Positions 6,738 through 53,309 of a stretch of DNA of 64,000 nt are shown piece after piece. How positions within the stretch are numbered: position 1 is the stretch's first letter; every line of letters begins with the position of its first letter. The notes beneath the pieces are model-generated. The model was given only the letters and a program-made list of their open reading frames with translations. It did no database searches and was not told the DNA's origin. The DNA is from a virus. The stretch lies in the IMG/VR virus record IMGVR_UViG_3300048672_000152, positions 29,453 through 93,452 of that record. One strand, 5' to 3'. Both the position numbers and the translations under genes were made by a program.

Positions 6738-7114
6738 AAAGATCCCCCGTATTCCGCAATAATCTCATCCATTACACGCAACGTACCATTGTAATCCCCG
6801 ATCCACATACGTAACAATGCTTCACGATATAATTGGTTATCTGTGAATGTATTAATTAACGCTGTGCCACTATCTACAGACACTAAATCAAGATTGTCTA
6901 TATACTGAAAAGCATAAGTTTTTAAATCCATTTCTAATTGCACACAATGTTTAGCTTTGTTTAAGTTAACAAGCTTGTCACCTTTATCTCTGGTTAGGTA
7001 TTTAGCAAGTTTACAGAAACACGGTGTACCGTATAGTTTATATACAAGCTCAATAGGCTGCATCTTCATTGCTGTGTAGTGTGTGCCATCGCATTGGAAT
7101 CCTAAACCATTCAT
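6734..7114 (-). CDS. DUF3310/SaV-like protein (T7 gp1.7 nucleotide-kinase-related)
   Basis: G.HY...MQPIE...KY..R.K....L.KA pattern. Confidence 0.6.
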   Translation of the reverse strand: MNGLGFQCDGTHYTAMKMQPIELVYKLYGTPCFCKLAKYLTRDKGDKLVNLNKAKHCVQLEMDLKTYAFQYIDNLDLVSVDSGTALINTFTDNQLYREALLRMWIGDYNGTLRVMDEIIAEYGGSL

Positions 7115-7169
7115 ATTATTCTCCTCTTAAAATTAAAAAGCCCCAATCTTTCGACTGAGGCTAAGTATA

Positions 7170-7901
7170 TTACTCTGGTACGCTATTGTCAAGCTCAGTG
7201 ATAATTAATTTTCCATTATCATCAACATCAACAGAAATCTCACCTAATACATATTGAGCTAATTGTGATTTAGTTAATTTTAACAGTTGTTCTCTTGTCA
7301 AAGTTTCTTCGTAGAGGTCGTCTAAGTTGAAAGCTTTGGTTTGAGCTTCTTTTTGTTCTTGAATTTGAGCTTTGATAATGTTCTCACGTTTTTCAAGTCG
7401 CTCACAGATTTCATCATACTCTAAATATGAATCCTTACCTTCAAGAATATCTTCAATTTCTTCTGGTGAATAGAAACCAAAGTAAACATCTTGGTACAAG
7501 GCACGTAATTGTTTGTCGCTAGATTGAATCGACCTAATTTTATCGCTTAACTTACCACCATCGTACCCATGAGATGTGTGACTCATAAGTGTGGAGTGTG
7601 GCATCACTTCAACTGAGTGACAAGACAGTAGCAGAATAGATCCACCACTCATTGCTACACCATTCAAAATACCATGTACATGACCGTTACAAGAACGAAT
7701 CATATTACTAAGCATTGTAGTAGTGTGCAGGAATCCTCCAAAACAGTTTATTGTTAGTTCAAGAGAATCATCTTCCGACATAGAAGTCAATACTTGAACT
7801 AATTCTCTATACTTGCTAGGTTCTTCAATATCCCCGTCAATGAAATATGCAAAGTTTTGTGGAGAAGGTTTTACGTAAATTGTATCTAATTCGTTAAGCA
7901 T
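7170..7901 (-). CDS. ClpP-like serine protease
   Basis: INCFGG, AMSGGS (Ser nucleophile), LMSH (His). Confidence 0.85.
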   Translation of the reverse strand: MLNELDTIYVKPSPQNFAYFIDGDIEEPSKYRELVQVLTSMSEDDSLELTINCFGGFLHTTTMLSNMIRSCNGHVHGILNGVAMSGGSILLLSCHSVEVMPHSTLMSHTSHGYDGGKLSDKIRSIQSSDKQLRALYQDVYFGFYSPEEIEDILEGKDSYLEYDEICERLEKRENIIKAQIQEQKEAQTKAFNLDDLYEETLTREQLLKLTKSQLAQYVLGEISVDVDDNGKLIITELDNSVPE

Positions 7902-8437
7902 TGTTCTCTCCTTAAAATATTGTATTGAAATTCAAGCTGTTTCCTCACGGTAGCAGCTTCGATTTCTGTGTTATATCTGCCGAAATACGTAGAAACTCCT
8001 CCTACTGGAAACCAAACTTCCCATTTATTATCTTTTGGTCTGATGCCGTACCAAGCATATGTCGGAGATTTACCTGTATTAAATGTGTTAGCTGAAACCG
8101 TACTTAGTCTCAAATTACATATACGATTATCTAAACTATCTCCATTTATGTGGTCAATAATAGAAGATGTGTCACCATAAACGTAAGCCCAAGCAACTCT
8201 ATGTGCTTTGTATCTTACCTTGTTTACATATAAACTCTTATATTGGTAGCCAGAGGCGTTTTCCTCTAAACTACCCGCTAACATCCCTACATGCTTCTTA
8301 TTAAAACTTTTCCAAACTGTATCAGTCTTGAAATGTTCTCTAGGACGAGTCTTCCAGAGGAATTCTCCTGTGCTTGGGTTATATTCAAGTACAGACTTAA
8401 TGTAATCCACAGGTATCGTCTTGGGTAATAGCAACAT
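7886..8437 (-). CDS. HNH homing endonuclease (HNH + AP2-like)
   Basis: Y.P.TGEF.W, AHRVAW, IDHINGDSLDNRICNLR. Confidence 0.9.
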   Translation of the reverse strand: MLLLPKTIPVDYIKSVLEYNPSTGEFLWKTRPREHFKTDTVWKSFNKKHVGMLAGSLEENASGYQYKSLYVNKVRYKAHRVAWAYVYGDTSSIIDHINGDSLDNRICNLRLSTVSANTFNTGKSPTYAWYGIRPKDNKWEVWFPVGGVSTYFGRYNTEIEAATVRKQLEFQYNILRREQCLTN

Positions 8438-8438
8438 A

Positions 8439-9194
8439 CTACATCAACCCCTTACGTCTCAGAGCAAGAATCACTTTCTTCACTGGTTCAGAACGAACAA
8501 TATCACTTGGACGATTGAAATCTACGAAGCCCCAAGGTAGGTCAGGATTCTCACCATACAACTCAATAGCTAATTGAAGACCGTTACTCTCTTTCAAATC
8601 AGTTTGTAGAATATCACCAGCTAAAACTAAAGTAGAGTTATTGCCGCTTCGAGTGATAATCTTGATAAACTCTTGACGACTGATATCTTCAGCTTCATCA
8701 CAAATGATAAAACAGTTCTTCAGTGAGCGTCCTTTTATCACTTCGAGTGGTATGGGTTCAATATCTCCACGTTCGATAGCTAAATCTACTACAGAACGTC
8801 CTAGCTTCTCGTATAGCGTATCTAAAATAGGCATTAACCAGTTCTTAGACTTCTCTACAAGAGACCCCCCGAAGAAACCTAATGACTTAGAGTTAGATAC
8901 TGCTGGACGCACTAGATAAATCTTATTGATTTCACCTAAATACCACTTTTCTGCTGCAACACAAGTAGGGATGTAACTTTTAGAGCTTCCTGCATACCCA
9001 GTAGCGATCACAACAGGAAGTTCATTGCACATACGAATGTATTCGGCTTGCAAATCATTCATAGGTTTTACGGTGACAAACTTTTCTTTTCGGTCTTCTA
9101 AATGTTTTTCAGAAATCTCACGAGGTTTCCCCGCAGTTTCTTTAGCTTTACGTGTTCTCTGTACACGTTGTTTCGCATTGCTATTGTGTTCCAA
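8439..9194 (-). CDS. phoH: PhoH-like ATPase
   Basis: TTG start with AGGAGG SD; GYAGSSKS, LVRP, LGFFGG, KGRSL, DEAE, GDILQTD, DIVRS. Confidence 0.93.
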   Translation of the reverse strand: MEHNSNAKQRVQRTRKAKETAGKPREISEKHLEDRKEKFVTVKPMNDLQAEYIRMCNELPVVIATGYAGSSKSYIPTCVAAEKWYLGEINKIYLVRPAVSNSKSLGFFGGSLVEKSKNWLMPILDTLYEKLGRSVVDLAIERGDIEPIPLEVIKGRSLKNCFIICDEAEDISRQEFIKIITRSGNNSTLVLAGDILQTDLKESNGLQLAIELYGENPDLPWGFVDFNRPSDIVRSEPVKKVILALRRKGLM

Positions 9195-9207
9195 TTTATT
9201 ATCCTCC

Positions 9208-9603
9208 TTAATCACAACTGCTTGATGAACTACTACTACTACTTGAATAATCTGAACTACTATAATTACTTGACGAGCAAGAATCACTACTAGACATGAT
9301 AATTGCAGTAGCTACATAAGGTGTAACATAGTCAGTGTTATCAACTTTAATAGCATTGCTCTCAGATTGAACAGTAGATTTATACTTACTCTCTGCTGGT
9401 TTGTTATACTTCTCAAACTTTGACTTAGCTGGAGTATTTACTTTCGGCATAGGAGTTTCTGTCTTAGTAGCAGGTAACTTCTGATAATCATTAATATGCT
9501 GTGGCAATTCTTCGACCTTCAGCATAGCAACATTAGGTAACTCTTGCTCAACTTTACTAGATGAAAACAATTTACTAAATTTAGATACTAACCAATTCCA
9601 CAT
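9208..9603 (-). CDS. protein with Ser-rich low-complexity C-terminus
   Basis: SSSDSCSSSNYSSSDYSSSSSSSSSSCD tail. Confidence 0.7.
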   Translation of the reverse strand: MWNWLVSKFSKLFSSSKVEQELPNVAMLKVEELPQHINDYQKLPATKTETPMPKVNTPAKSKFEKYNKPAESKYKSTVQSESNAIKVDNTDYVTPYVATAIIMSSSDSCSSSNYSSSDYSSSSSSSSSSCD

Positions 9604-9619
9604 AACAATCCCCCCTTAT

Positions 9620-9787
9620 TTATCGAAAATAAATATCATCTCTCAGACTAACGTAACCATCTCTAATTTCTTTAACAGTAGGTATACTGCTTTTCCTATC
9701 AGCTAAGAAAGCTAAGGGGTACATTGCTACTAAAACAATAGTAAACAACAACACAGCAAGAGTAAACTTAATATGCAACCACCACAT
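9620..9787 (-). CDS. small membrane protein (55 aa, not in ORF track)
   Basis: MWWLHIKFTLAVLLFTIVLVAMYPLAFLA...; TAATG coupling to upstream gene. Confidence 0.6.
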   Translation of the reverse strand: MWWLHIKFTLAVLLFTIVLVAMYPLAFLADRKSSIPTVKEIRDGYVSLRDDIYFR

Positions 9788-10002
9788 TATAAATACTCCC
9801 CTAATAATTCTAGTTCATATTCAGACAACATAACACTGTAAGGCTGACTTTTAGCTTTCAATGTTGTCTGGTAGTTACGTAAGATATGCTCATAATCTAG
9901 CATATCAGGAACTTCTTCTTGTGATGCTTTATTATTCTCAAAGTTAGTGAGGAATGTATCACAAGCTAATAAGAATACATCTGTTGGGTATGTGAAATAC
10001 AT
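9787..10002 (-). CDS. hypothetical protein
   Basis: GGAGG SD. Confidence 0.6.
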   Translation of the reverse strand: MYFTYPTDVFLLACDTFLTNFENNKASQEEVPDMLDYEHILRNYQTTLKAKSQPYSVMLSEYELELLGEYL

Positions 10003-10005
10003 TAG

Positions 10006-10335
10006 TTAACCTCCTAATAGTTCAATTAGTTTGTCTTTAATCTTTTCTTCAGCATCGTCCACTTTTAACTTAGTACCGACTGATACAGCAATCGCAGCAA
10101 TGCGGTCTTCGTAGTTATCCAAGAAATTACGAATTTCTTTTAGTTGTTTACCTGAGAATTCTTCTAGTAACGCCTCACGATAAGCACCTTTGATGTTAAA
10201 TGTTTCAACAACGAAGTCTTTTAGTTCCGCCAACACTGATGGTTCTAAATCAATTTGCTTCTTAACCTCGTCTTCCATTTGTTGCATAAAAGCGCCGACA
10301 ACTTTCTGGACAATACTCTCTAAATCTGAAGTCAT
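10006..10335 (-). CDS. hypothetical protein
   Basis: AGGAGAG SD. Confidence 0.7.
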   Translation of the reverse strand: MTSDLESIVQKVVGAFMQQMEDEVKKQIDLEPSVLAELKDFVVETFNIKGAYREALLEEFSGKQLKEIRNFLDNYEDRIAAIAVSVGTKLKVDDAEEKIKDKLIELLGG

Positions 10336-12786: not shown

Positions 12787-12896
12787 TCAATTTTAAGCTA
12801 TGTACAAGCGTGTACAAGCCACTCTATTCTTACCCAATACGATTTATCATCTTACGTATAATAACACCCTTCTCAACGCTTGTACAGCGTTTAAAT
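12787..12896. repeat. ~110-bp non-coding element A (degenerate inverted copy of element B at 15296-15408)
   Basis: shares TCAATTTT...GTACAAGyCAyTmTA...CCCArTACG...GTTTAAAT with the reverse complement of 15296-15408; internal IR TGTACAAGCGT/ACGCTTGTACA. Confidence 0.6.
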
Positions 12897-13214: not shown

Positions 13215-13243
13215 ACTGTACAGGAAGACAATGGGATTGTCAA
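13215..13243 (-). promoter_or_regulatory. leftward sigma70 promoter (divergent pair)
   Basis: TTGACA-17-TACAGT. Confidence 0.75.
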
Positions 13244-13257
13244 TAGGTATTTTGTTG

Positions 13258-13286
13258 TTGACATTTGGAATTTGGTGGTGTAGAGT
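13258..13286 (+). promoter_or_regulatory. rightward sigma70 promoter (divergent pair)
   Basis: TTGACA-17-TAGAGT. Confidence 0.75.
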
Positions 13287-13395: not shown

Positions 13396-13557
13396 ATGAC
13401 TAATGAAGAAATTATTGAGAGTATTGCAAACTGGTACGAACTTCCTGTTGAGCAAGTGGCTTTGTTATGGAGTGCATTTCAGTGGGTGTCTGATAGTGAT
13501 TTACAGCAAGTGGTTAGAGCTACTGTTACTCAATTTATTCAAGATAAGTTGGTGTAG
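13396..13557 (+). CDS. hypothetical protein
   Basis: AAGGAGA SD, ATG 13396. Confidence 0.6.
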   Translation: MTNEEIIESIANWYELPVEQVALLWSAFQWVSDSDLQQVVRATVTQFIQDKLV

Positions 13558-13573
13558 TTCGACACACTAAATG

Positions 13574-13616
13574 AAACCTCTGTATCCTTAGTCTCTCTAA
13601 GGCTGTAGAGGTTTTT
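13574..13616 (+). terminator. hairpin/terminator upstream of the polymerase-like gene
   Basis: AAACCTCT..CTTAG-TCTCT-CTAAG..AGAGGTTT followed by T-rich tract. Confidence 0.5.
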
Positions 13617-13668: not shown

Positions 13669-14973
13669 TTGTATTGGATAGATTATAAGATAAGTAATGA
13701 GATGAAAGAAGTTAGTAGTAAGTATTATACCGAGTACGTAGATTATTTATCTAAGTTTAATGAAGTTAAGTTAACAATTAATAAACTTACTAAGATAAGA
13801 CAAGCTGTAGATTGTCTGTTCTATAACATTCAATACAGCTTAAAAGGTGATACGATCATAGTCACTAGAGATAGGAATGATTTTAGTAGACCACTAATCT
13901 ATAATGGCAGGGTAGTTAATCGTAAGGTAAGCTATGAGTATACTATGTCATTATTCTCTTGGTTACATGCTCAAGGTTATGCTACTAATGAGATTGGTTT
14001 AGTGGATAATTGGGTGATGAAGGGTGGTGAATGGACACCGTTAACCATTAAACAAAGTAAACTGATATTATCTGACCAACTTATGAGGGATGTCAATACT
14101 GTACTTATAGACAAAAAGAATGTACCTCCAGTAGAGAATGTTATTCGTATCCGTGATGAGAGTAAGAATTATGTCACTAAGCGTTTAGGTGAATATCAGC
14201 AACACCTGTGTAAGTTACTTAAAGAATACAACCATTTGTCTAAGAGTTTTATTTTAGAATCATGCGGTAAAGAATTTGACATTCAGGTAGCAAAGGTGTA
14301 CAATCAATCTTCCTTCCAGAAGGGTGGAAGGACTTATGTTATTGGGGGAGGAAGTGAAGTGTTAGAGAGTGAAATCAGAAGTCGATTAACTGTTGATGGT
14401 GAAAAGACTGTTGAATGTGATTATAAGAGTTTACATGCTCGTCTTGTTGCTACTGTAGTTGGTACACATATCCCACTAGACCATGACCCTTATCAACTGA
14501 CTTTGGATGGGTATGACAACAAAGTGCTGCGTAAGATATGTAAGTTGCTTGTCCTGTGTATGTTTAATGCTAGTAGTAAGCAGAGTGCTATTTCAGCAGT
14601 TAACAAAGAAATCAACGAAACATCGTATGTCGATGAGAATGGGAATGATATTCCAATCAGAGATTATTGGTTTAAAGAAGGTTTAGCTCCAAAGTATTTA
14701 GAGTTGAAATACATTGCGGATTTATTGTTAGAACACAACCCTTATATGAAAGGCCATGCTTTTACTGGATGTGGTATGGATCTACAGAATTTAGATTCAC
14801 GTATGATGGATATTGTGGTAGATTATTTCACTAATAATGGGGAGTTCTGTTTACCTGTGCATGATTCTATTGTTGTTCGTGAAACTCTAAAAGACCAAGC
14901 AATCACTGTAATGTATGAAGCATATCTACAAGTTATGGGTAATAACGATAATTGTATTGTGGATGTTAAATAA
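13669..14973 (+). CDS. small family-A (PolA/T7-RNAP fold) polymerase-like protein, no exonuclease domain
   Basis: GGRTY, ECDYKSLH (motif A), RKICK (motif B), LQNLDS, VHDSI (motif C). Confidence 0.7.
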   Translation: MYWIDYKISNEMKEVSSKYYTEYVDYLSKFNEVKLTINKLTKIRQAVDCLFYNIQYSLKGDTIIVTRDRNDFSRPLIYNGRVVNRKVSYEYTMSLFSWLHAQGYATNEIGLVDNWVMKGGEWTPLTIKQSKLILSDQLMRDVNTVLIDKKNVPPVENVIRIRDESKNYVTKRLGEYQQHLCKLLKEYNHLSKSFILESCGKEFDIQVAKVYNQSSFQKGGRTYVIGGGSEVLESEIRSRLTVDGEKTVECDYKSLHARLVATVVGTHIPLDHDPYQLTLDGYDNKVLRKICKLLVLCMFNASSKQSAISAVNKEINETSYVDENGNDIPIRDYWFKEGLAPKYLELKYIADLLLEHNPYMKGHAFTGCGMDLQNLDSRMMDIVVDYFTNNGEFCLPVHDSIVVRETLKDQAITVMYEAYLQVMGNNDNCIVDVK

Positions 14974-15035: not shown

Positions 15036-15296
15036 ATGAAATTTAATCTTTGGAACATTATTGCTGTTGGGGCACTACTTTATGTGGTTGATGCTATGAT
15101 GCTATCATCGTTTGTTGATGAACTGAAGGCTACAGAAGACTATGAGAAAGTATGTGTTATGGATAAACTAACAGATGGATTGTCTACTAACGCAATTTTA
15201 CGTAAAGTGGAACGAGAGATTACTCTTGAACAGGCTGGATTATTTAAGTACTTATATGGTGAACGTGCTGTACGTAAATCTATTGAGGAGTGTTGA
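15036..15296 (+). CDS. membrane-anchored hypothetical protein
   Basis: N-terminal hydrophobic helix; AGGAGAG SD. Confidence 0.65.
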   Translation: MKFNLWNIIAVGALLYVVDAMMLSSFVDELKATEDYEKVCVMDKLTDGLSTNAILRKVEREITLEQAGLFKYLYGERAVRKSIEEC

Positions 15297-15408
15297 TTTA
15301 AACACTCTCAGAACAACGTAGAAGCGATTAAATAGGTAGAGGTAGGCATACGTACTGGGCATGTGTTATAATGACTTGTACGTTGCTGTATTAGTGATTG
15401 AAAATTGA
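15296..15408. repeat. ~113-bp non-coding element B (inverted partner of element A)
   Basis: see element A; internal IR CAACGTAGAAG/CTTGTACGTTG; contains TGTTATAAT. Confidence 0.6.
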
Positions 15409-17160: not shown

Positions 17161-17201
17161 TCATGTAGATTGTATTGTATGTAAAGAATTAAGGACAGAA
17201 T

Positions 17202-17612
17202 ATGTCTGATGTAGAAACTACCTCTAGCGAAATCCGCGATGATAAAGGCAGATTTAAACGTGGAGTTAGCGGCAACGTTAAAGGTCGCCCTCGTAATACT
17301 AAAGGGAACAAACACAAACACGCAAAGCAAACATTAGAAACAATGTTAATGTCTACAGGGCCAGCAGCTTTAAAAGCTATCAAGAAAATGGCTGATGAAG
17401 AATTAGCAAAGGGTAATGTCAATCACGCATTCAAATGTTATGTGTTTATTGCTGATAAATATTATCAACTTGTTATGCACAACGACAAGGTTGAAATCCA
17501 AGCTATCAAAGACGAAGAACAGCGTAAGCTTAAAGCACAGCAACAACAGGATGAAGATTCTGAAGAAGATTCAACATTCCAGAATGTAATTGTTACATTC
17601 GGTAGTGCTTAA
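17202..17612 (+). CDS. terS: probable terminase small subunit
   Basis: RDDKGRFKRGVSGNVKGRP (DUF5681-type motif), position upstream of terL. Confidence 0.65.
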   Translation: MSDVETTSSEIRDDKGRFKRGVSGNVKGRPRNTKGNKHKHAKQTLETMLMSTGPAALKAIKKMADEELAKGNVNHAFKCYVFIADKYYQLVMHNDKVEIQAIKDEEQRKLKAQQQQDEDSEEDSTFQNVIVTFGSA

Positions 17613-17632
17613 CATCAACGAATAACTATAAC

Positions 17633-17733
17633 TCTATGCGTATACTCTTGTATACCTCTCCATCATCCCCCTAGAGGCAGCCTCTCCTCTGCACCTCTCC
17701 ACTCTAGGGAGATTTCTTCCCCCCCCGCATAGA
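17633..17733. ncRNA. structured intergenic RNA with three CCTCTCC motifs
   Basis: nested stems TCTATGCG/CGCATAGA, ATCCCCCTAGAG/CTCTAGGGAGAT, GCAG/CTGC. Confidence 0.55.
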
Positions 17734-17755
17734 AGAATTACACAAGGAATTATAA

Positions 17756-18181
17756 ATGAATTTAGTAAACTTAACATACGGTGGAAGCCGTAGTTATTTC
17801 AAAGGTATTATCGAACAAGGTAGTAATTTGGCAACAGTAGAAGCTGGTTGGTCATCTTATTGTCGATTACTTGTCACTACACGCTTAAATATGAAGCTAA
17901 TGATTGGTGGTGTTGAAGAAGATGTTATTGATGGTAGAACACTACTTGATTTAACATTCAATGCCGCTAAAGCTGGTAAATTCACCCTAGATGAAGCTGA
18001 AGCAATTGCTAGTCAATTAGATAAGATTAGTTTACGTTACACATCTGTACGCACTCCATTCTTTGCAATTGCTTATGAAAAAGATTTGACATCTAAAGAA
18101 GAAGCTAGTAATATTGATTCTGTTGCTGAGGATGTTGTTACAGAAGCTCCGAAGCAACGTGGTCGTAAAGCTGCTAAGTAA
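17756..18181 (+). CDS. hypothetical protein
   Basis: AAGGA SD; basic C-terminal tail. Confidence 0.75.
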   Translation: MNLVNLTYGGSRSYFKGIIEQGSNLATVEAGWSSYCRLLVTTRLNMKLMIGGVEEDVIDGRTLLDLTFNAAKAGKFTLDEAEAIASQLDKISLRYTSVRTPFFAIAYEKDLTSKEEASNIDSVAEDVVTEAPKQRGRKAAK

Positions 18182-29432: not shown

Positions 29433-29861
29433 ATGACAACAAATTTAGAACGTAAAAAAGAAATCTTCAATGTAGGCGGTAAAGCCTATATCTCTGTTTC
29501 TTGGTCGCCTATGAAAGCTGCTAAGAACCTCCCTAAGATTGGTAAAGCATTCGCCGTACCTATCTCTTTCCTTATCGCTGGTGGTGAAAATATCCAATCA
29601 GCTATCCCTACAGCTATGATGATGTTGTTCGAGCAGTTAGAAGAACAAGACATTACAGAGTTGTTCTCTTTAATTCTAGCAGATGTTTGGTCTAAGAGTA
29701 CAGATAAAGCGTTAAATATTGATACTGATCTTGAGAACATTGATGAGTTACTTCAGCTAACAGCTAACGTATTGAAGCAACATTATGGGGTACTGATTAA
29801 CGGTACGGGTTTTACATCCCTGTTCCAAACGATGGTTCCTCTACATCAAATGGCGGTATAA
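29433..29861 (+). CDS. tail assembly chaperone (gpG-like)
   Basis: between tube and TMP; slippery G GGT TTT at 29807-29813. Confidence 0.85.
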   Translation: MTTNLERKKEIFNVGGKAYISVSWSPMKAAKNLPKIGKAFAVPISFLIAGGENIQSAIPTAMMMLFEQLEEQDITELFSLILADVWSKSTDKALNIDTDLENIDELLQLTANVLKQHYGVLINGTGFTSLFQTMVPLHQMAV

Positions 29862-49599: not shown

Positions 49600-52320
49600 T
49601 TATTGACACATTTCACAAGATTCCAAGTCTCTCACTAACCCATCAGCACCACGTACTGAGTAGATGTAATATAGAGATAAAATGTCCTCATTGTCAAATG
49701 CCATACGATGTATTTTACTAATATATTCTTCACTGTCATTTGATGTGAAGTACAGATTTAAACTCTGTCCTTGGTCAATGTATTTCTGTCTTTGTGCAGC
49801 TAAGTTGATTACCCATTCCATTGGGATTTCAAAAGCTGTCAAGAATACTTTCTTCTCGTGTTCGGTGAGCCAACTTACTTGCTGTACACTACCTTTAGAC
49901 CTAGCGAGTAAATTAATATTCTCGTCATTATATACACCACGTTCTTTCATCAACTTCAACAAAACTTTGTTGATTCGGAAGAATTCACCACCAGCAGATT
50001 GTTTTGTAAACACCATAGCTACGTCTAAACCGATACCTTCACTAGCACCAGCCATGATCTCAGCAGTAGACTTAGTGGGTGGCATCATTAATCTGGTGGC
50101 ATTACGAATACCTAAACCTTTACAACCTTCAGGTTCACCCACTACACCAGCTAACCATCTAGTAGCTTCCTTACTATCTCTATCTAATCTACTAAAGATT
50201 TCTTCATTTAGTAACATAGCATCCATACTAGCTACGGGAATACTTTTCATCTGCATTAGTGTATGCCAACCAAGAACACCACTACCTAGACTACGGAACT
50301 CTTTAGTAAACTTGTAGATTTTACGCATAGCAATTTTGTCTACATCAGTCATCTCATCCATAGTTTCTAAGTATTCAGAAATATTACAATCTGACATCAC
50401 TTGACCAATTTGTACTAGATGTTCAGGCCAACTATCCCACAACTCTAAGTTATAACAAAGGATAACACAACTAAAAGTGTATTCCTCATTAGATGGTAGA
50501 TTTGTTTCCTGACACTGACCAGTCAATATACCATTGAACATCCCCATACCACGAAGTTTTTCAGTGAAACAGTAAGTGTCATCAGTGCGTCCCTCGTCAT
50601 CTACACTAACAATTTTTACAAATTGCTTTGCGTCACGTTGAGGTAGGCGTTTCACCACACTCAATCTGTGTAGGTAATTACCAAGACCCAATTCCATCAG
50701 ACGATAGACATCATAACTAGTAATCAGTAATCTCTCAGCAGGTTGACATAAATACTCTTTATGCTCCCCTGTACCATTATTAGCTGGTAATGTTTTATAA
50801 CCGCCTTCACTCATTAGGGTTACTTTAGCACTCACCCCTAATGTTTGCAACATACGTTGAATTTCTCTTAAGAATTCAGGCTCTACGCTACAAGCTACTA
50901 ATTGCTGATTACCGCCATTCCGATAAACACAACCATCACCATCTAAGTAACCAGCTAACCATTCCAACCTTGATTCAATAGTATAAGTGGCATCCGGTAC
51001 GAAGAATTTGGGTTTTAATCCATCCACTCGACCAATTTCTCTATCCATAGATTCATTTGTGCTGTGAGTGACTAAATCAAATAAATGAGTAAGTTTACGT
51101 TTTTCTCCGTAAAAATACACGTTTGCTTTCCCACGTACAACACAACCATCTGCGCTAAAGAACCCGTTCTGGTATGCTTTAGTTAATACCTTATCACCCT
51201 CTATCACAGGTAAGTCGAACTTAATTAACTTATCACCAGCTACTAGTTCATTGGTACGTTTCTCAATAACATTGCCTGTGTAGCCATCAGCTACATAAAA
51301 CTTATGGTATGGGGTACAATTTAAAACTTGACCACCAGAAGTAGTAACTTTTAACAGTTTTTGGTCAACACCAGTTTTTACAATAGTTGTTGCACTAAAT
51401 TGCTCACCGTTCCACACATTTACTTGTTGACCTTCTAAGTCAGCAATAGGGAAGTACCCGTAATCTGTTAGGATCTGAGTTTCTGGTGCAACACATAAAT
51501 TACTTGCGTTAGTTTTCAAACCTTTCAATTTAAACGCTTCAGCGAGGTGTCTATTACACTTGTCAATGAAGGTATAGTAACCTCTACCTCGTGGTAATTT
51601 AACCTCTAGCGTCCTTTGGAAGCGTTTTAAAGTCTCTTTATCTTTATTACGCATCTTATTAACATCACTATCCTTAATCAACCACCCAACATTGTTAGAT
51701 TCTGGATTAAGATACAGGTTGTCAGCAACAGCATAAAAATCACCATGAGATAAACCTATACTGTAAGCTAAACTACCTCTACGGGCTGCTTGCGTTACTT
51801 CATCCATACAGTTAATGAAATCCCGTACAATAGGCATCACACCTAAACTGTAACCACCTCTCCGAAGGGGTTCACCCTCAGCAGGCCAATCATCAATGCT
51901 GTAACTTGTGCCATGACTATGTTTAGTCAGTATAGCAGCTTCTGTGATAGCGTTATAGCGGTCAAATAAATTATTACCTACATTACCACCAGCACAAGAT
52001 ACTGTAGTACCCCGCTTACGTAAACCACCGTTAGCTAATAGTGGGGTAGATGGGCTAATGAAGCCATCCCACAATGCTTTAAAGAATACTTCTTCCCAAG
52101 ATAATCCTTGGGTATATGTATCACTCTCCCACCACTCCGGTTTGACTGATGGCGCGTGTTGCGCCATAGTCTTAGCGATTGCTTCATACCGAGATTTAGG
52201 AGTTTCTTCTTCAAAAGAATATTTCTCGTAAAACAACTGAATACCTGAAGTCGTGTACCATGATGGTGCTTCACCAATCTCCTGTAGTCGTTTACGTAAT
52301 GTTGAATAATCTACCTTCAT
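49600..52320 (-). CDS. nrdA: class I ribonucleotide reductase alpha subunit (no ATP-cone) with intein
   Basis: SPSTP, VSC, SNL|C QE, PPT.ST, YIDQGQSLN, LYY, C-terminal CEMCQ; TAATG coupling to nrdB. Confidence 0.95.
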   Translation of the reverse strand: MKVDYSTLRKRLQEIGEAPSWYTTSGIQLFYEKYSFEEETPKSRYEAIAKTMAQHAPSVKPEWWESDTYTQGLSWEEVFFKALWDGFISPSTPLLANGGLRKRGTTVSCAGGNVGNNLFDRYNAITEAAILTKHSHGTSYSIDDWPAEGEPLRRGGYSLGVMPIVRDFINCMDEVTQAARRGSLAYSIGLSHGDFYAVADNLYLNPESNNVGWLIKDSDVNKMRNKDKETLKRFQRTLEVKLPRGRGYYTFIDKCNRHLAEAFKLKGLKTNASNLCVAPETQILTDYGYFPIADLEGQQVNVWNGEQFSATTIVKTGVDQKLLKVTTSGGQVLNCTPYHKFYVADGYTGNVIEKRTNELVAGDKLIKFDLPVIEGDKVLTKAYQNGFFSADGCVVRGKANVYFYGEKRKLTHLFDLVTHSTNESMDREIGRVDGLKPKFFVPDATYTIESRLEWLAGYLDGDGCVYRNGGNQQLVACSVEPEFLREIQRMLQTLGVSAKVTLMSEGGYKTLPANNGTGEHKEYLCQPAERLLITSYDVYRLMELGLGNYLHRLSVVKRLPQRDAKQFVKIVSVDDEGRTDDTYCFTEKLRGMGMFNGILTGQCQETNLPSNEEYTFSCVILCYNLELWDSWPEHLVQIGQVMSDCNISEYLETMDEMTDVDKIAMRKIYKFTKEFRSLGSGVLGWHTLMQMKSIPVASMDAMLLNEEIFSRLDRDSKEATRWLAGVVGEPEGCKGLGIRNATRLMMPPTKSTAEIMAGASEGIGLDVAMVFTKQSAGGEFFRINKVLLKLMKERGVYNDENINLLARSKGSVQQVSWLTEHEKKVFLTAFEIPMEWVINLAAQRQKYIDQGQSLNLYFTSNDSEEYISKIHRMAFDNEDILSLYYIYSVRGADGLVRDLESCEMCQ
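50515..51495 (-). mobile_element. intein (327 aa) with LAGLIDADG endonuclease and C-terminal Gln
   Basis: CVAPET start, TPYHKF block B, GFFSADG and AGYLDGDG, ends NGILTGQ before Cys. Confidence 0.93.
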
Positions 52321-53309
52321 TAATCCCTCCAAGCCGCAATAAAACCTTCACTATCCCATTTACTCTCATACTCGCTACCCTGACCTTTAGTGAAGAAGTC
52401 AACAGATTTATAGGAGTATGTATTCTTTTCAAACCAACCAACAATTGTACAGTCTGTTACGTCAAACATTTTAGGTAATTGAATACGCTCTAAATAAATA
52501 TTTAAGCGGTATTTAACGAATTCCTTCATATCTTGTTTAGTAACACCATTCAAGGTATCTTGTAAGAAAGCCATCTCGATAATACGACACTCATGTTCAT
52601 AAGCGTGTAGAACAGCAGCTTTTACCGCTTCATACCGAGGAGTATCATCTACTAACTTAGTACCTAATTCACGATAATAAGTGTTGATAATTTCAGCACT
52701 AATAATACCATGTTGGTCTTCGTCAATAGCACTCTGATTAGTACCTCGTACAATTACAGGTAATAGATTATAACCATTAGATTGAAAGCTTTTCAATACC
52801 GCAAAAGAACTAAATAGTAAGGCTGTTTCAGTCATTGAGAAAATGATAGTAGCGAGTATCTTATCTTCTTGACCCAACATCTGTCCTAGCCATGTAACAC
52901 GTTCATTCAGTTCTGGGTCATTAACATAAGCAAGGTAGTCTTCATCCTCATCCATACCTAGTTCAATATTGATTTGATTGTAAAACTCCGCATGTACCGC
53001 ACGTTCTACCATAGATACAATAGACGCAGCTAATTGCACTTCTGGTCGAGGAAAAGTTTTAGCTACCACATCTTCCCAGAACCTACCAACAATTAATTCA
53101 TAACGTAAGAACAGGTGTAATACGGTTTTTACCGCATGAAATTGTTCTTCATTCAATTCATATAATAATTGCATACGGTCTAAATGAACTTTCATTTCTG
53201 AACTAAACCACAACTGCTCCTCTAACTGTTTATTAGCTAAAGTAACAATGTCTGGGTAATGTCTTGTGTAACTATCAGTTGGTGTGCAAATACGAGGCAA
53301 CTTAGACAT
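52320..53309 (-). CDS. nrdB: ribonucleotide reductase beta subunit
   Basis: W...E, ERAVHAEFY, E...LFSSF, DEDQH, DFF...EY. Confidence 0.93.
   Translation of the reverse strand: MSKLPRICTPTDSYTRHYPDIVTLANKQLEEQLWFSSEMKVHLDRMQLLYELNEEQFHAVKTVLHLFLRYELIVGRFWEDVVAKTFPRPEVQLAASIVSMVERAVHAEFYNQINIELGMDEDEDYLAYVNDPELNERVTWLGQMLGQEDKILATIIFSMTETALLFSSFAVLKSFQSNGYNLLPVIVRGTNQSAIDEDQHGIISAEIINTYYRELGTKLVDDTPRYEAVKAAVLHAYEHECRIIEMAFLQDTLNGVTKQDMKEFVKYRLNIYLERIQLPKMFDVTDCTIVGWFEKNTYSYKSVDFFTKGQGSEYESKWDSEGFIAAWRD

Follow-up and report, generated by a model that had tools for sequence, protein, structure and literature searches.

What does a polymerase of minimal size do in a phage that has a regular DNA polymerase of its own? 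The question is raised by an open reading frame (ORF) in a 64,000-nucleotide (nt) stretch of an uncultivated virus genome, IMG/VR record IMGVR_UViG_3300048672_000152 (positions 29,453 to 93,452 of a 93,452-bp record; this whole stretch is hereafter called the window). The ORF, at 13669-14973 of the window, encodes a protein of 434 amino acids (aa) that combines motifs of DNA polymerases (DNAPs) with motifs of T7-like RNA polymerases (RNAPs). In the original prediction, made from the letters of the DNA, the product was described as an uncharacterised nucleotidyltransferase, possibly an origin-specific primase/initiator or a minimal RNAP. The analysis presented here identifies the gene as that of a stripped-down relative of DNA polymerase I (Pol I) belonging to the divPolA2 family. 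We tentatively read the protein as an accessory DNA primase-polymerase (prim-pol) of low processivity that would initiate or restart replication of the phage at particular sites.

Identification of the gene and its family

The ORF list and the translation confirmed the 434-aa ORF on the plus strand, together with all the motifs that had been quoted for it. The TTG start codon was supported by an N-terminal 'YWxDYK' conserved in ATG-started homologues and by a GGAGGA 12 nt upstream; some gene callers and the ESM Atlas place the start at Met12. The protein matched PHROG 4756 (function unknown) with E 4e-84, and the divPolA2 family profile matched 8,995 cluster representatives at E <= 1e-3, the clusters being formed at 50% identity. 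Based on these matches, the ORF is a real gene and not a chance reading frame. Barbavirus gp035 was homologous by tblastn (E 1e-47, 96% of the query, 115 Rheinheimera phage records), and a Barba31A protein was matched in BFVD (E 2e-33). Homologues were labelled hypothetical in every matching phage record.

Conventional searches of the 434-aa protein against Pfam, NCBI-style sequence and PADLOC collections returned no polymerase or defence family. Neither this protein nor 22 relatives matched Pfam DNA_pol_A (PF00476) at E <= 10, and PDB sequences searched with phmmer or a narrow profile yielded no useful match. A megablast search of the locus against phage records produced no match, and a plasmid search produced two weak partial matches only. 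As judged from the structural model, kinship with canonical family A DNAPs is visible only by structure. The term 'uncharacterised' is correct in the biochemical sense; it does not hold for the family, which was already described as divPolA2 in 2024 and probably overlaps the TV-Pol family.

Predicted fold and catalytic motifs

An AlphaFold2 model was built with 23 homologues and reached a predicted local distance difference test score (pLDDT) of 93 and a predicted template modelling score (pTM) of 0.86. Foldseek placed the model among family A DNAPs (E ~1e-5, probability 1.0), with matches that start at about residues 78-170 and run onward. The top 14 structural matches were PolA or T7-like RNAP chains, the best of them being DNAPs. 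A right-hand palm had been expected from the motifs, and the predicted fold was indeed that of a family A palm with fingers. According to the model secondary structure and the aligned ranges, the canonical thumb is missing, as is a 3'-5' exonuclease domain, and an N-terminal globular domain is found instead. Searched alone, this domain gave no exonuclease or thumb match and no fold match above noise, which agrees with the earlier remark that an exonuclease domain is lacking. Weak but convergent hints suggest that the domain is possibly a winged helix replacing the thumb. A YNG...RKxSY motif is conserved in the N-terminal part of the protein.

Conservation of the motifs was then counted in 160 diverse homologues, and a broader alignment comprised 52 phage and bacterial sequences. 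The motifs are located at residues 219-223 (GGRTY), 249-256 (ECDYKSLH), 288-292 (RKICK), 372-377 (LQNLDS) and 397-401 (VHDSI), with the individual counts listed in Table 1. Both catalytic Asp residues are present, D399 in every homologue and D251 in all but one. R237 was found in 160/160 and Y275 in 159/160, and the fingers residue D273 was conserved along with R221/R237, D251, D399 and R288-K292. In the 52-sequence alignment, R237, D251, K292 and D399 were invariant. A weak HH alignment (E 0.08) with the phage's own PolA fell on motif A and paired R237...D251 with the PolA 'IRQ...GID' block. From these residues, the 434-aa protein is predicted to be a catalytically competent, minimal family A polymerase. 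Predicted fold and Asp conservation, two points on which the original prediction could have failed, both bear it out.

The description of the motifs as 'mixed' proved fair, with a Pol I-like DYxxxH in motif A and an HDS in motif C as in T7-type RNAPs. In motif B, which had been noted to lack the usual YG, RxxxK is kept and the Tyr is replaced by Asn. By motif spacing, H256 corresponds to the steric-gate position of Pol I and N300 to the position at which Pol I and T7 RNAP carry Tyr. Position 256 was occupied by His in 124 and by Glu in 29 of the homologues, position 300 by Asn in 151 and by Tyr in 5, and position 400, directly after the motif C Asp, by Ser in 123 and by Glu in 23. We take the LQNLDS helix to resemble QGTAAD of Pol I and HSQDGS of T7 RNAP.

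Within divPolA2, two subfamilies could be told apart by their residues at the steric gate and in motif C, a division that is new in this analysis. The first has DY..LH(P) and (P)VHDS and includes both copies in the present genome, one of which, the paralogue described below, has Trp at the gate. The second has DY..FEP and VFDE, with a Pol I-type Glu at the steric gate and an acidic residue after the motif C Asp; the motif B Tyr is sometimes present in this subfamily.

An accessory polymerase with a second paralogue

The same genome encodes a regular 823-aa PolA (PF00476) and a Toprim-DnaB primase-helicase. A second divPolA2 paralogue of 435 aa lies outside the window (genome 11614-12921, minus strand; L004:1498-2805 -). 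It is 30% identical to the 434-aa copy over the full length and carries DYSQLW in motif A and HDS in motif C. A 68-aa HTH_37/HTH_3 gene stands before the paralogue, which is the leading gene of the replication operon; the primase-helicase and PolA come last in this operon. Because the phage brings a PolA and a primase-helicase of its own besides two divPolA2 paralogues, the 434-aa enzyme is an accessory polymerase. Its gene had been placed away from the replication block; this is true of the copy in the window, which is ~38 kb from PolA and the primase-helicase, and not of the second paralogue.

Relatives in phages

In ~14/19 viral loci the divPolA2 gene came first or second among the ORFs that follow a strand switch, and the Barba10S locus has the same layout as the present phage. 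In the Barba18A infection transcriptome (PMC9305737, Table S2), expression of the homologue is highest at the first time point, like that of the cluster for replication and nucleotide metabolism; the homologue was identified as gp034 from the numbering offset to Barba10S. Around the gene, neighbouring families recurred only in closely related phages.

The ICP1 locus after GP97.1 carries either a 434-aa allele (L001:5995-7299) or a 495-aa allele (L007:2646-4133), depending on the isolate. Their N-terminal halves are entirely different. In the 495-aa allele the match is confined to the catalytic half, and the N-terminal half is therefore replaceable.

Relatives on bacterial islands

Bacterial relatives came mostly from Alphaproteobacteria, and also from Reinekea, Marinobacter and Desulfovibrio. 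In eight bacterial loci a tyrosine integrase was located a few genes away, and in Marinobacter and Reinekea a small serine resolvase was beside the gene. The genes scanned at the bacterial loci included neither a helicase nor a primase. For Reinekea MED297, a single match was obtained (E 6e-88) beside a resolvase and an integrase, which gives a genus-level overlap with the TV-Pol list of 2008. Of 201 sampled genomes of one class, ten carried 1-3 copies. Two copies of identical score were situated 9 kb apart in one of the sampled genomes (G130:C14:8251-9231 and 17200-18180), and these paired copies recall the TV-Pol element duplications reported for Brucella. Separately, a divPolA2/TV-Pol-like island in a Desulfovibrio metagenome-assembled genome, which includes a DUF6538 integrase-type gene, was observed directly beside a Cas9-Cas1 locus (L010:5269-6621 and 7104-10280).

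Locus layout and transcription signals

The features of the locus are collected in Table 1.

Table 1. Positions in the window of the divPolA2 gene, its domains and motifs and the signals upstream of it; fractions out of 160 are conservation counts among homologues
Feature	Position	Strand	Remarks
divPolA2-family gene	13669..14973	+	434 aa, TTG start, stop included; ORF list and translation
N-terminal domain, residues 1-170	13669..14178	+	Predicted helices 10-27 and 37-57, then beta-rich module with helix 89-102
Palm and fingers catalytic core, residues ~171-434	14179..14970	+	
GGR (G219-R221), beta-hairpin Arg	14323..14331	+	Cf. Pol I TGR, T7 RNAP RGR; R221 159/160, G220 157/160
Motif A, E249-x-D251-YKSL-H256	14413..14436	+	D251, catalytic Asp, 159/160
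Motif B / O-helix, R288-xxx-K292...L296...N300	14530..14568	+	R288 156/160, K292 159/160
LQNLDS (L372-S377), helix just before motif C	14782..14799	+	Q373 128/160, S377 143/160
Motif C, V397-H-D399-S400	14857..14868	+	D399, second catalytic Asp, 160/160
Divergent sigma70-like promoter pair (consensus matches only)	13215..13286	13215-13243 (-), 13258-13286 (+)	Each 10/12
Terminator-like hairpin, 18-bp arms, then T-run	13574..13614	+	Between small upstream ORF and gene; inverted repeat and fold
Small upstream ORF, 53 aa from ATG	13397..13557	+	Listed from GTG 13366 as 63 aa; no family match

The back-to-back sigma70 promoters and the hairpin of the original prediction were both recovered as patterns. 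The promoter hexamers read TTGACA-17-TACAGT on the minus strand and TTGACA-17-TAGAGT on the plus strand. Hairpins comparable to the one before the gene were found upstream of the Barba10S and 249E41-1 homologues and of the second paralogue. Several of the upstream spacers of ~100 nt contained terminator-like hairpins, with modest z-scores and no common fold. Several phages have a small ORF before divPolA2; no homology links these ORFs. A 'TTATTGG' word upstream of the gene was considered as a shared signal and rejected, being present at 3/16 loci only. Inverted elements of ~110 bp at 12787-12896 and 15296-15408 were not found by a repeat search, which detected a local hairpin with 27-nt arms at 12792-12895.

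Counts of k-mers in the intergenic regions, which could miss a single-copy promoter, revealed no repeated phage-specific promoter; only sigma70-like words, terminator words and one 15-mer (three occurrences) were recovered. Sigma70-like sites, TTGACA-17-TAnnnT, are present at the main operons, among them the one that runs into the terminase and structural region. An extended -35 word, CC(C)TATTGAC(A), was observed at four operon starts (window 13239, 17128 and 49541; genome 10968). One of these sites precedes a small terminase-like gene, and the word may mark a shared class of host-type promoter. The 15-mer, AATTGATAAATTTTA, is situated in three intergenic regions (window 49551; genome 20114 and 22962) and nowhere else in the genome, and may be an operator or protein-binding site.

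Two other features of the genome were recorded. The gene for the large subunit of ribonucleotide reductase (window 49600-52332, minus strand) is split by an intein that carries a LAGLIDADG endonuclease domain (Pfam Intein_splicing and LAGLIDADG_3). Outside the window, genes for a polynucleotide kinase/phosphatase and a T4-type RNA ligase stand side by side (genome 8374-10157, minus strand), forming a tRNA-repair pair such as is used against anticodon nucleases.

Weighing the possible roles

The literature leaves two roles open for the family, a primase/initiator and a minimal RNAP, and the original prediction offered the same pair. In the favoured scheme, the gene would be expressed most likely early, from host-type promoters. 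DNA binding would fall to the N-terminal domain, possibly a winged helix; the enzyme would synthesise short stretches of DNA at low processivity and probably start its chains de novo, and would thereby serve the initiation or restart of phage replication. A prim-pol role has been predicted for TV-Pols (PMC2579912) and shown for CcPol-MP (PMC7581432, PMC10061031). For the 434-aa enzyme, we infer use of deoxynucleoside triphosphates (dNTPs), de novo initiation and site specificity. The bacterial island context is the context behind the prim-pol prediction of 2008 and lends support by analogy; the early expression in Barba18A and the strand-switch position were also counted for the prim-pol reading. 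Several points weigh on the other side. The phage already has a canonical primase-helicase, and a second primase is not obviously needed. Motif C has the HDS of T7-type RNAPs, and RNAPs score structurally nearly as high as DNAPs. The matches behind the winged-helix assignment were all below threshold. The analysis identified neither a candidate origin nor a cognate site, and no conserved small partner of the single-stranded DNA (ssDNA)-binding, oligonucleotide/oligosaccharide-binding (OB)-fold type, such as the MP protein of CcPol, was found adjoining divPolA2. The TV-Pol element of Ma-LMM01 gave no match with either family profile, leaving the sequence link to that family unmade, and no experimental work on any divPolA2 was found in the literature.

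The same HDS motif, with Ser as the prevailing residue at position 400, would suit a minimal single-subunit DNA-dependent RNAP, expressed early, whose N-terminal domain reads one or a few phage promoters for transcription of a subset of genes or for RNA primers. This possibility was also raised by Yutin et al. (PMC11348598). It would fit the early expression and the position of the gene at operon heads, and the variable N-terminal domain could set promoter specificity. It is nevertheless considered rather unlikely. In T7 RNAP, Gly is at the gate and the motif B Tyr reads the 2'-OH, residue roles that are known from this enzyme and from Klenow. DNA was favoured over RNA because the gate in divPolA2 is bulky (His, Trp or Glu) and not Gly, because the Tyr is replaced by Asn (both equivalences by motif spacing), because the sister subfamily with DY..FEP/VFDE is plainly DNAP-like, and because sigma70-like promoters are found at the operons, the terminase/structural one included, and the intergenic counts showed no repeated phage-specific promoter word. 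That the best structural matches were DNAPs points the same way. Further against an RNAP, the family also occurs on tiny bacterial islands, where such an enzyme would have no evident use, and its alleles and copies vary between isolates.

A DNAP that needs a primer and serves repair, gap filling or lesion bypass, with neither priming nor site specificity, is the role named first by Yutin et al. (PMC11348598). The complete catalytic core without proofreading domain or thumb would suit it, since both absences imply short, error-tolerant synthesis, and the genome carries further genes of repair type (ligase, polynucleotide kinase, RNA ligase and a 5'-3' exonuclease). Such a role leaves unexplained the promoter-near position at divergent regions, the replaceable N-terminal domain, the multiple diverged paralogues and the integrase/resolvase islands that lack other DNA-metabolism genes, and is regarded as improbable. 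Still more doubtful is a non-replicative nucleotidyltransferase, engaged in template-independent synthesis or in making a counter-defence product, or the replicase of a selfish cassette residing in the phage. The patchy presence with 1-3 paralogues per genome, the replacement of the allele at one ICP1 locus, the mobile-element behaviour in bacteria with identical duplicates in one genome and the terminal transferase activity that CcPol-MP also has would all agree with it. Opposed to it are the lack of a PADLOC match, the lack of flanking repeats bounding a cassette at the present locus and the conservation of the template-contacting residues R221, R237 and Q373. On this evidence, the prim-pol reading is retained as the preferred one, in the tentative form stated at the outset.

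Significance

New here are the second paralogue and the regular PolA in the genome, the position of the locus, the early timing of the homologue, the subfamilies, the winged-helix hints and the bacterial islands. The divPolA2 family is very large, has no Pfam coverage and is present in the well-studied ICP1 and Rheinheimera Barba phages; it is widespread in phages and on small integrative islands. For the gene in the window, the annotation 'divPolA2 / TV-Pol-like minimal family A polymerase' can replace 'hypothetical protein'. Its activity would show what a minimal family A core can do, whether a fused DNA-binding domain replaces both the thumb and the primase partner, and why phages with a full replisome keep 1-3 such genes heading early operons.

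There is a slim chance that divPolA2 is the smallest single-subunit polymerase that can start chains by itself, either as a 434-aa promoter-reading RNAP or as an origin-specific prim-pol in one polypeptide. The RNAP form would be about half the size of T7 RNAP and would read its promoter with a fused winged-helix-like domain, and the DNA prim-pol form would constitute a third class of primase. In either form, a compact polymerase that starts chains de novo would be useful as a tool.

Comparison with known systems

The closest known system is divPolA2 itself, named by Yutin et al. 2024 (Virol J 21:200, PMC11348598) from sequence alone; it was found initially in 110 barbaviruses and later in further Caudoviricetes, with up to three paralogues per genome and varying neighbourhoods. 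In their description the palm is active, a homologous thumb and an exonuclease are absent, and the N-terminal globular domain is of unknown fold; they proposed a role as "repair DNAP or RNA polymerase" (PMC11348598). No later paper using the name divPolA2 was found. The present protein shares the length of ~430 aa, the active palm, the absence of thumb and exonuclease, the N-terminal domain, the regular DNAP alongside and the paralogues. The regular polymerase is PolB in the barbaviruses, whereas it is PolA in the present phage, an uncultivated genome of ~93 kb whose terminase is only ~40% identical to those of the nearest isolates.

TV-Pol (Iyer, Abhiman and Aravind 2008, Biol Direct 3:39, PMC2579912) is a minimal core of 400-600 aa related to PolA and T7-like RNAPs. 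Its hallmarks are a hairpin Arg, two catalytic Asp residues, an Asp in the fingers and RxxxK; some members carry an N-terminal domain and are located beside genes for gamma-delta resolvase and lambda-type integrase in Alphaproteobacteria, Reinekea and Vibrio. Prim-pol activity was predicted by these authors because of the genomic context (PMC2579912). The conserved residue set, the taxa and the resolvase/integrase neighbours were also found here for divPolA2, a connection to TV-Pol or CcPol that Yutin et al. did not draw (PMC11348598). TV-Pol differs in having a two-helix thumb and an all-helical N-terminal domain, whereas the model of the present protein has two N-terminal helices and a beta-rich module, and no D5-like helicase is fused or adjacent in the present phage.

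CcPol from staphylococcal cassette chromosome mec (SCCmec) was assigned to TV-Pol by Iyer et al. (PMC2579912). With its small ssDNA-binding partner MP it forms a dNTP-using primase (Bebel et al. 2020, PMC7581432; Rice 2023, PMC10061031). CcPol-MP, from SCCmec and other Bacillota elements, resembles divPolA2 as a PolA with truncated N-terminal accessory domains on mobile DNA; the likeness covers the family A core. CcPol needs the separate OB-fold partner MP, in an operon with a helicase, whereas divPolA2 has no conserved flanking partner, and its fused N-terminal domain may play the part of MP.

With the T7-like RNAPs, including N4 RNAPII and N4 mini-vRNAP, divPolA2 shares the HDS motif C, the GR hairpin motif and the status of an early phage gene. 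It is half their size or less and has neither the motif B Tyr nor a small residue at the gate; no elements for promoter specificity could be recognised in it, and no repeated phage promoter was detected in the present genome. The piPolB of pipolins (PMC10061031) is likewise a polymerase of a replicative family that is carried on integrase-bearing islands and is self-priming; it belongs to family B, and the parallel is one of analogy only.
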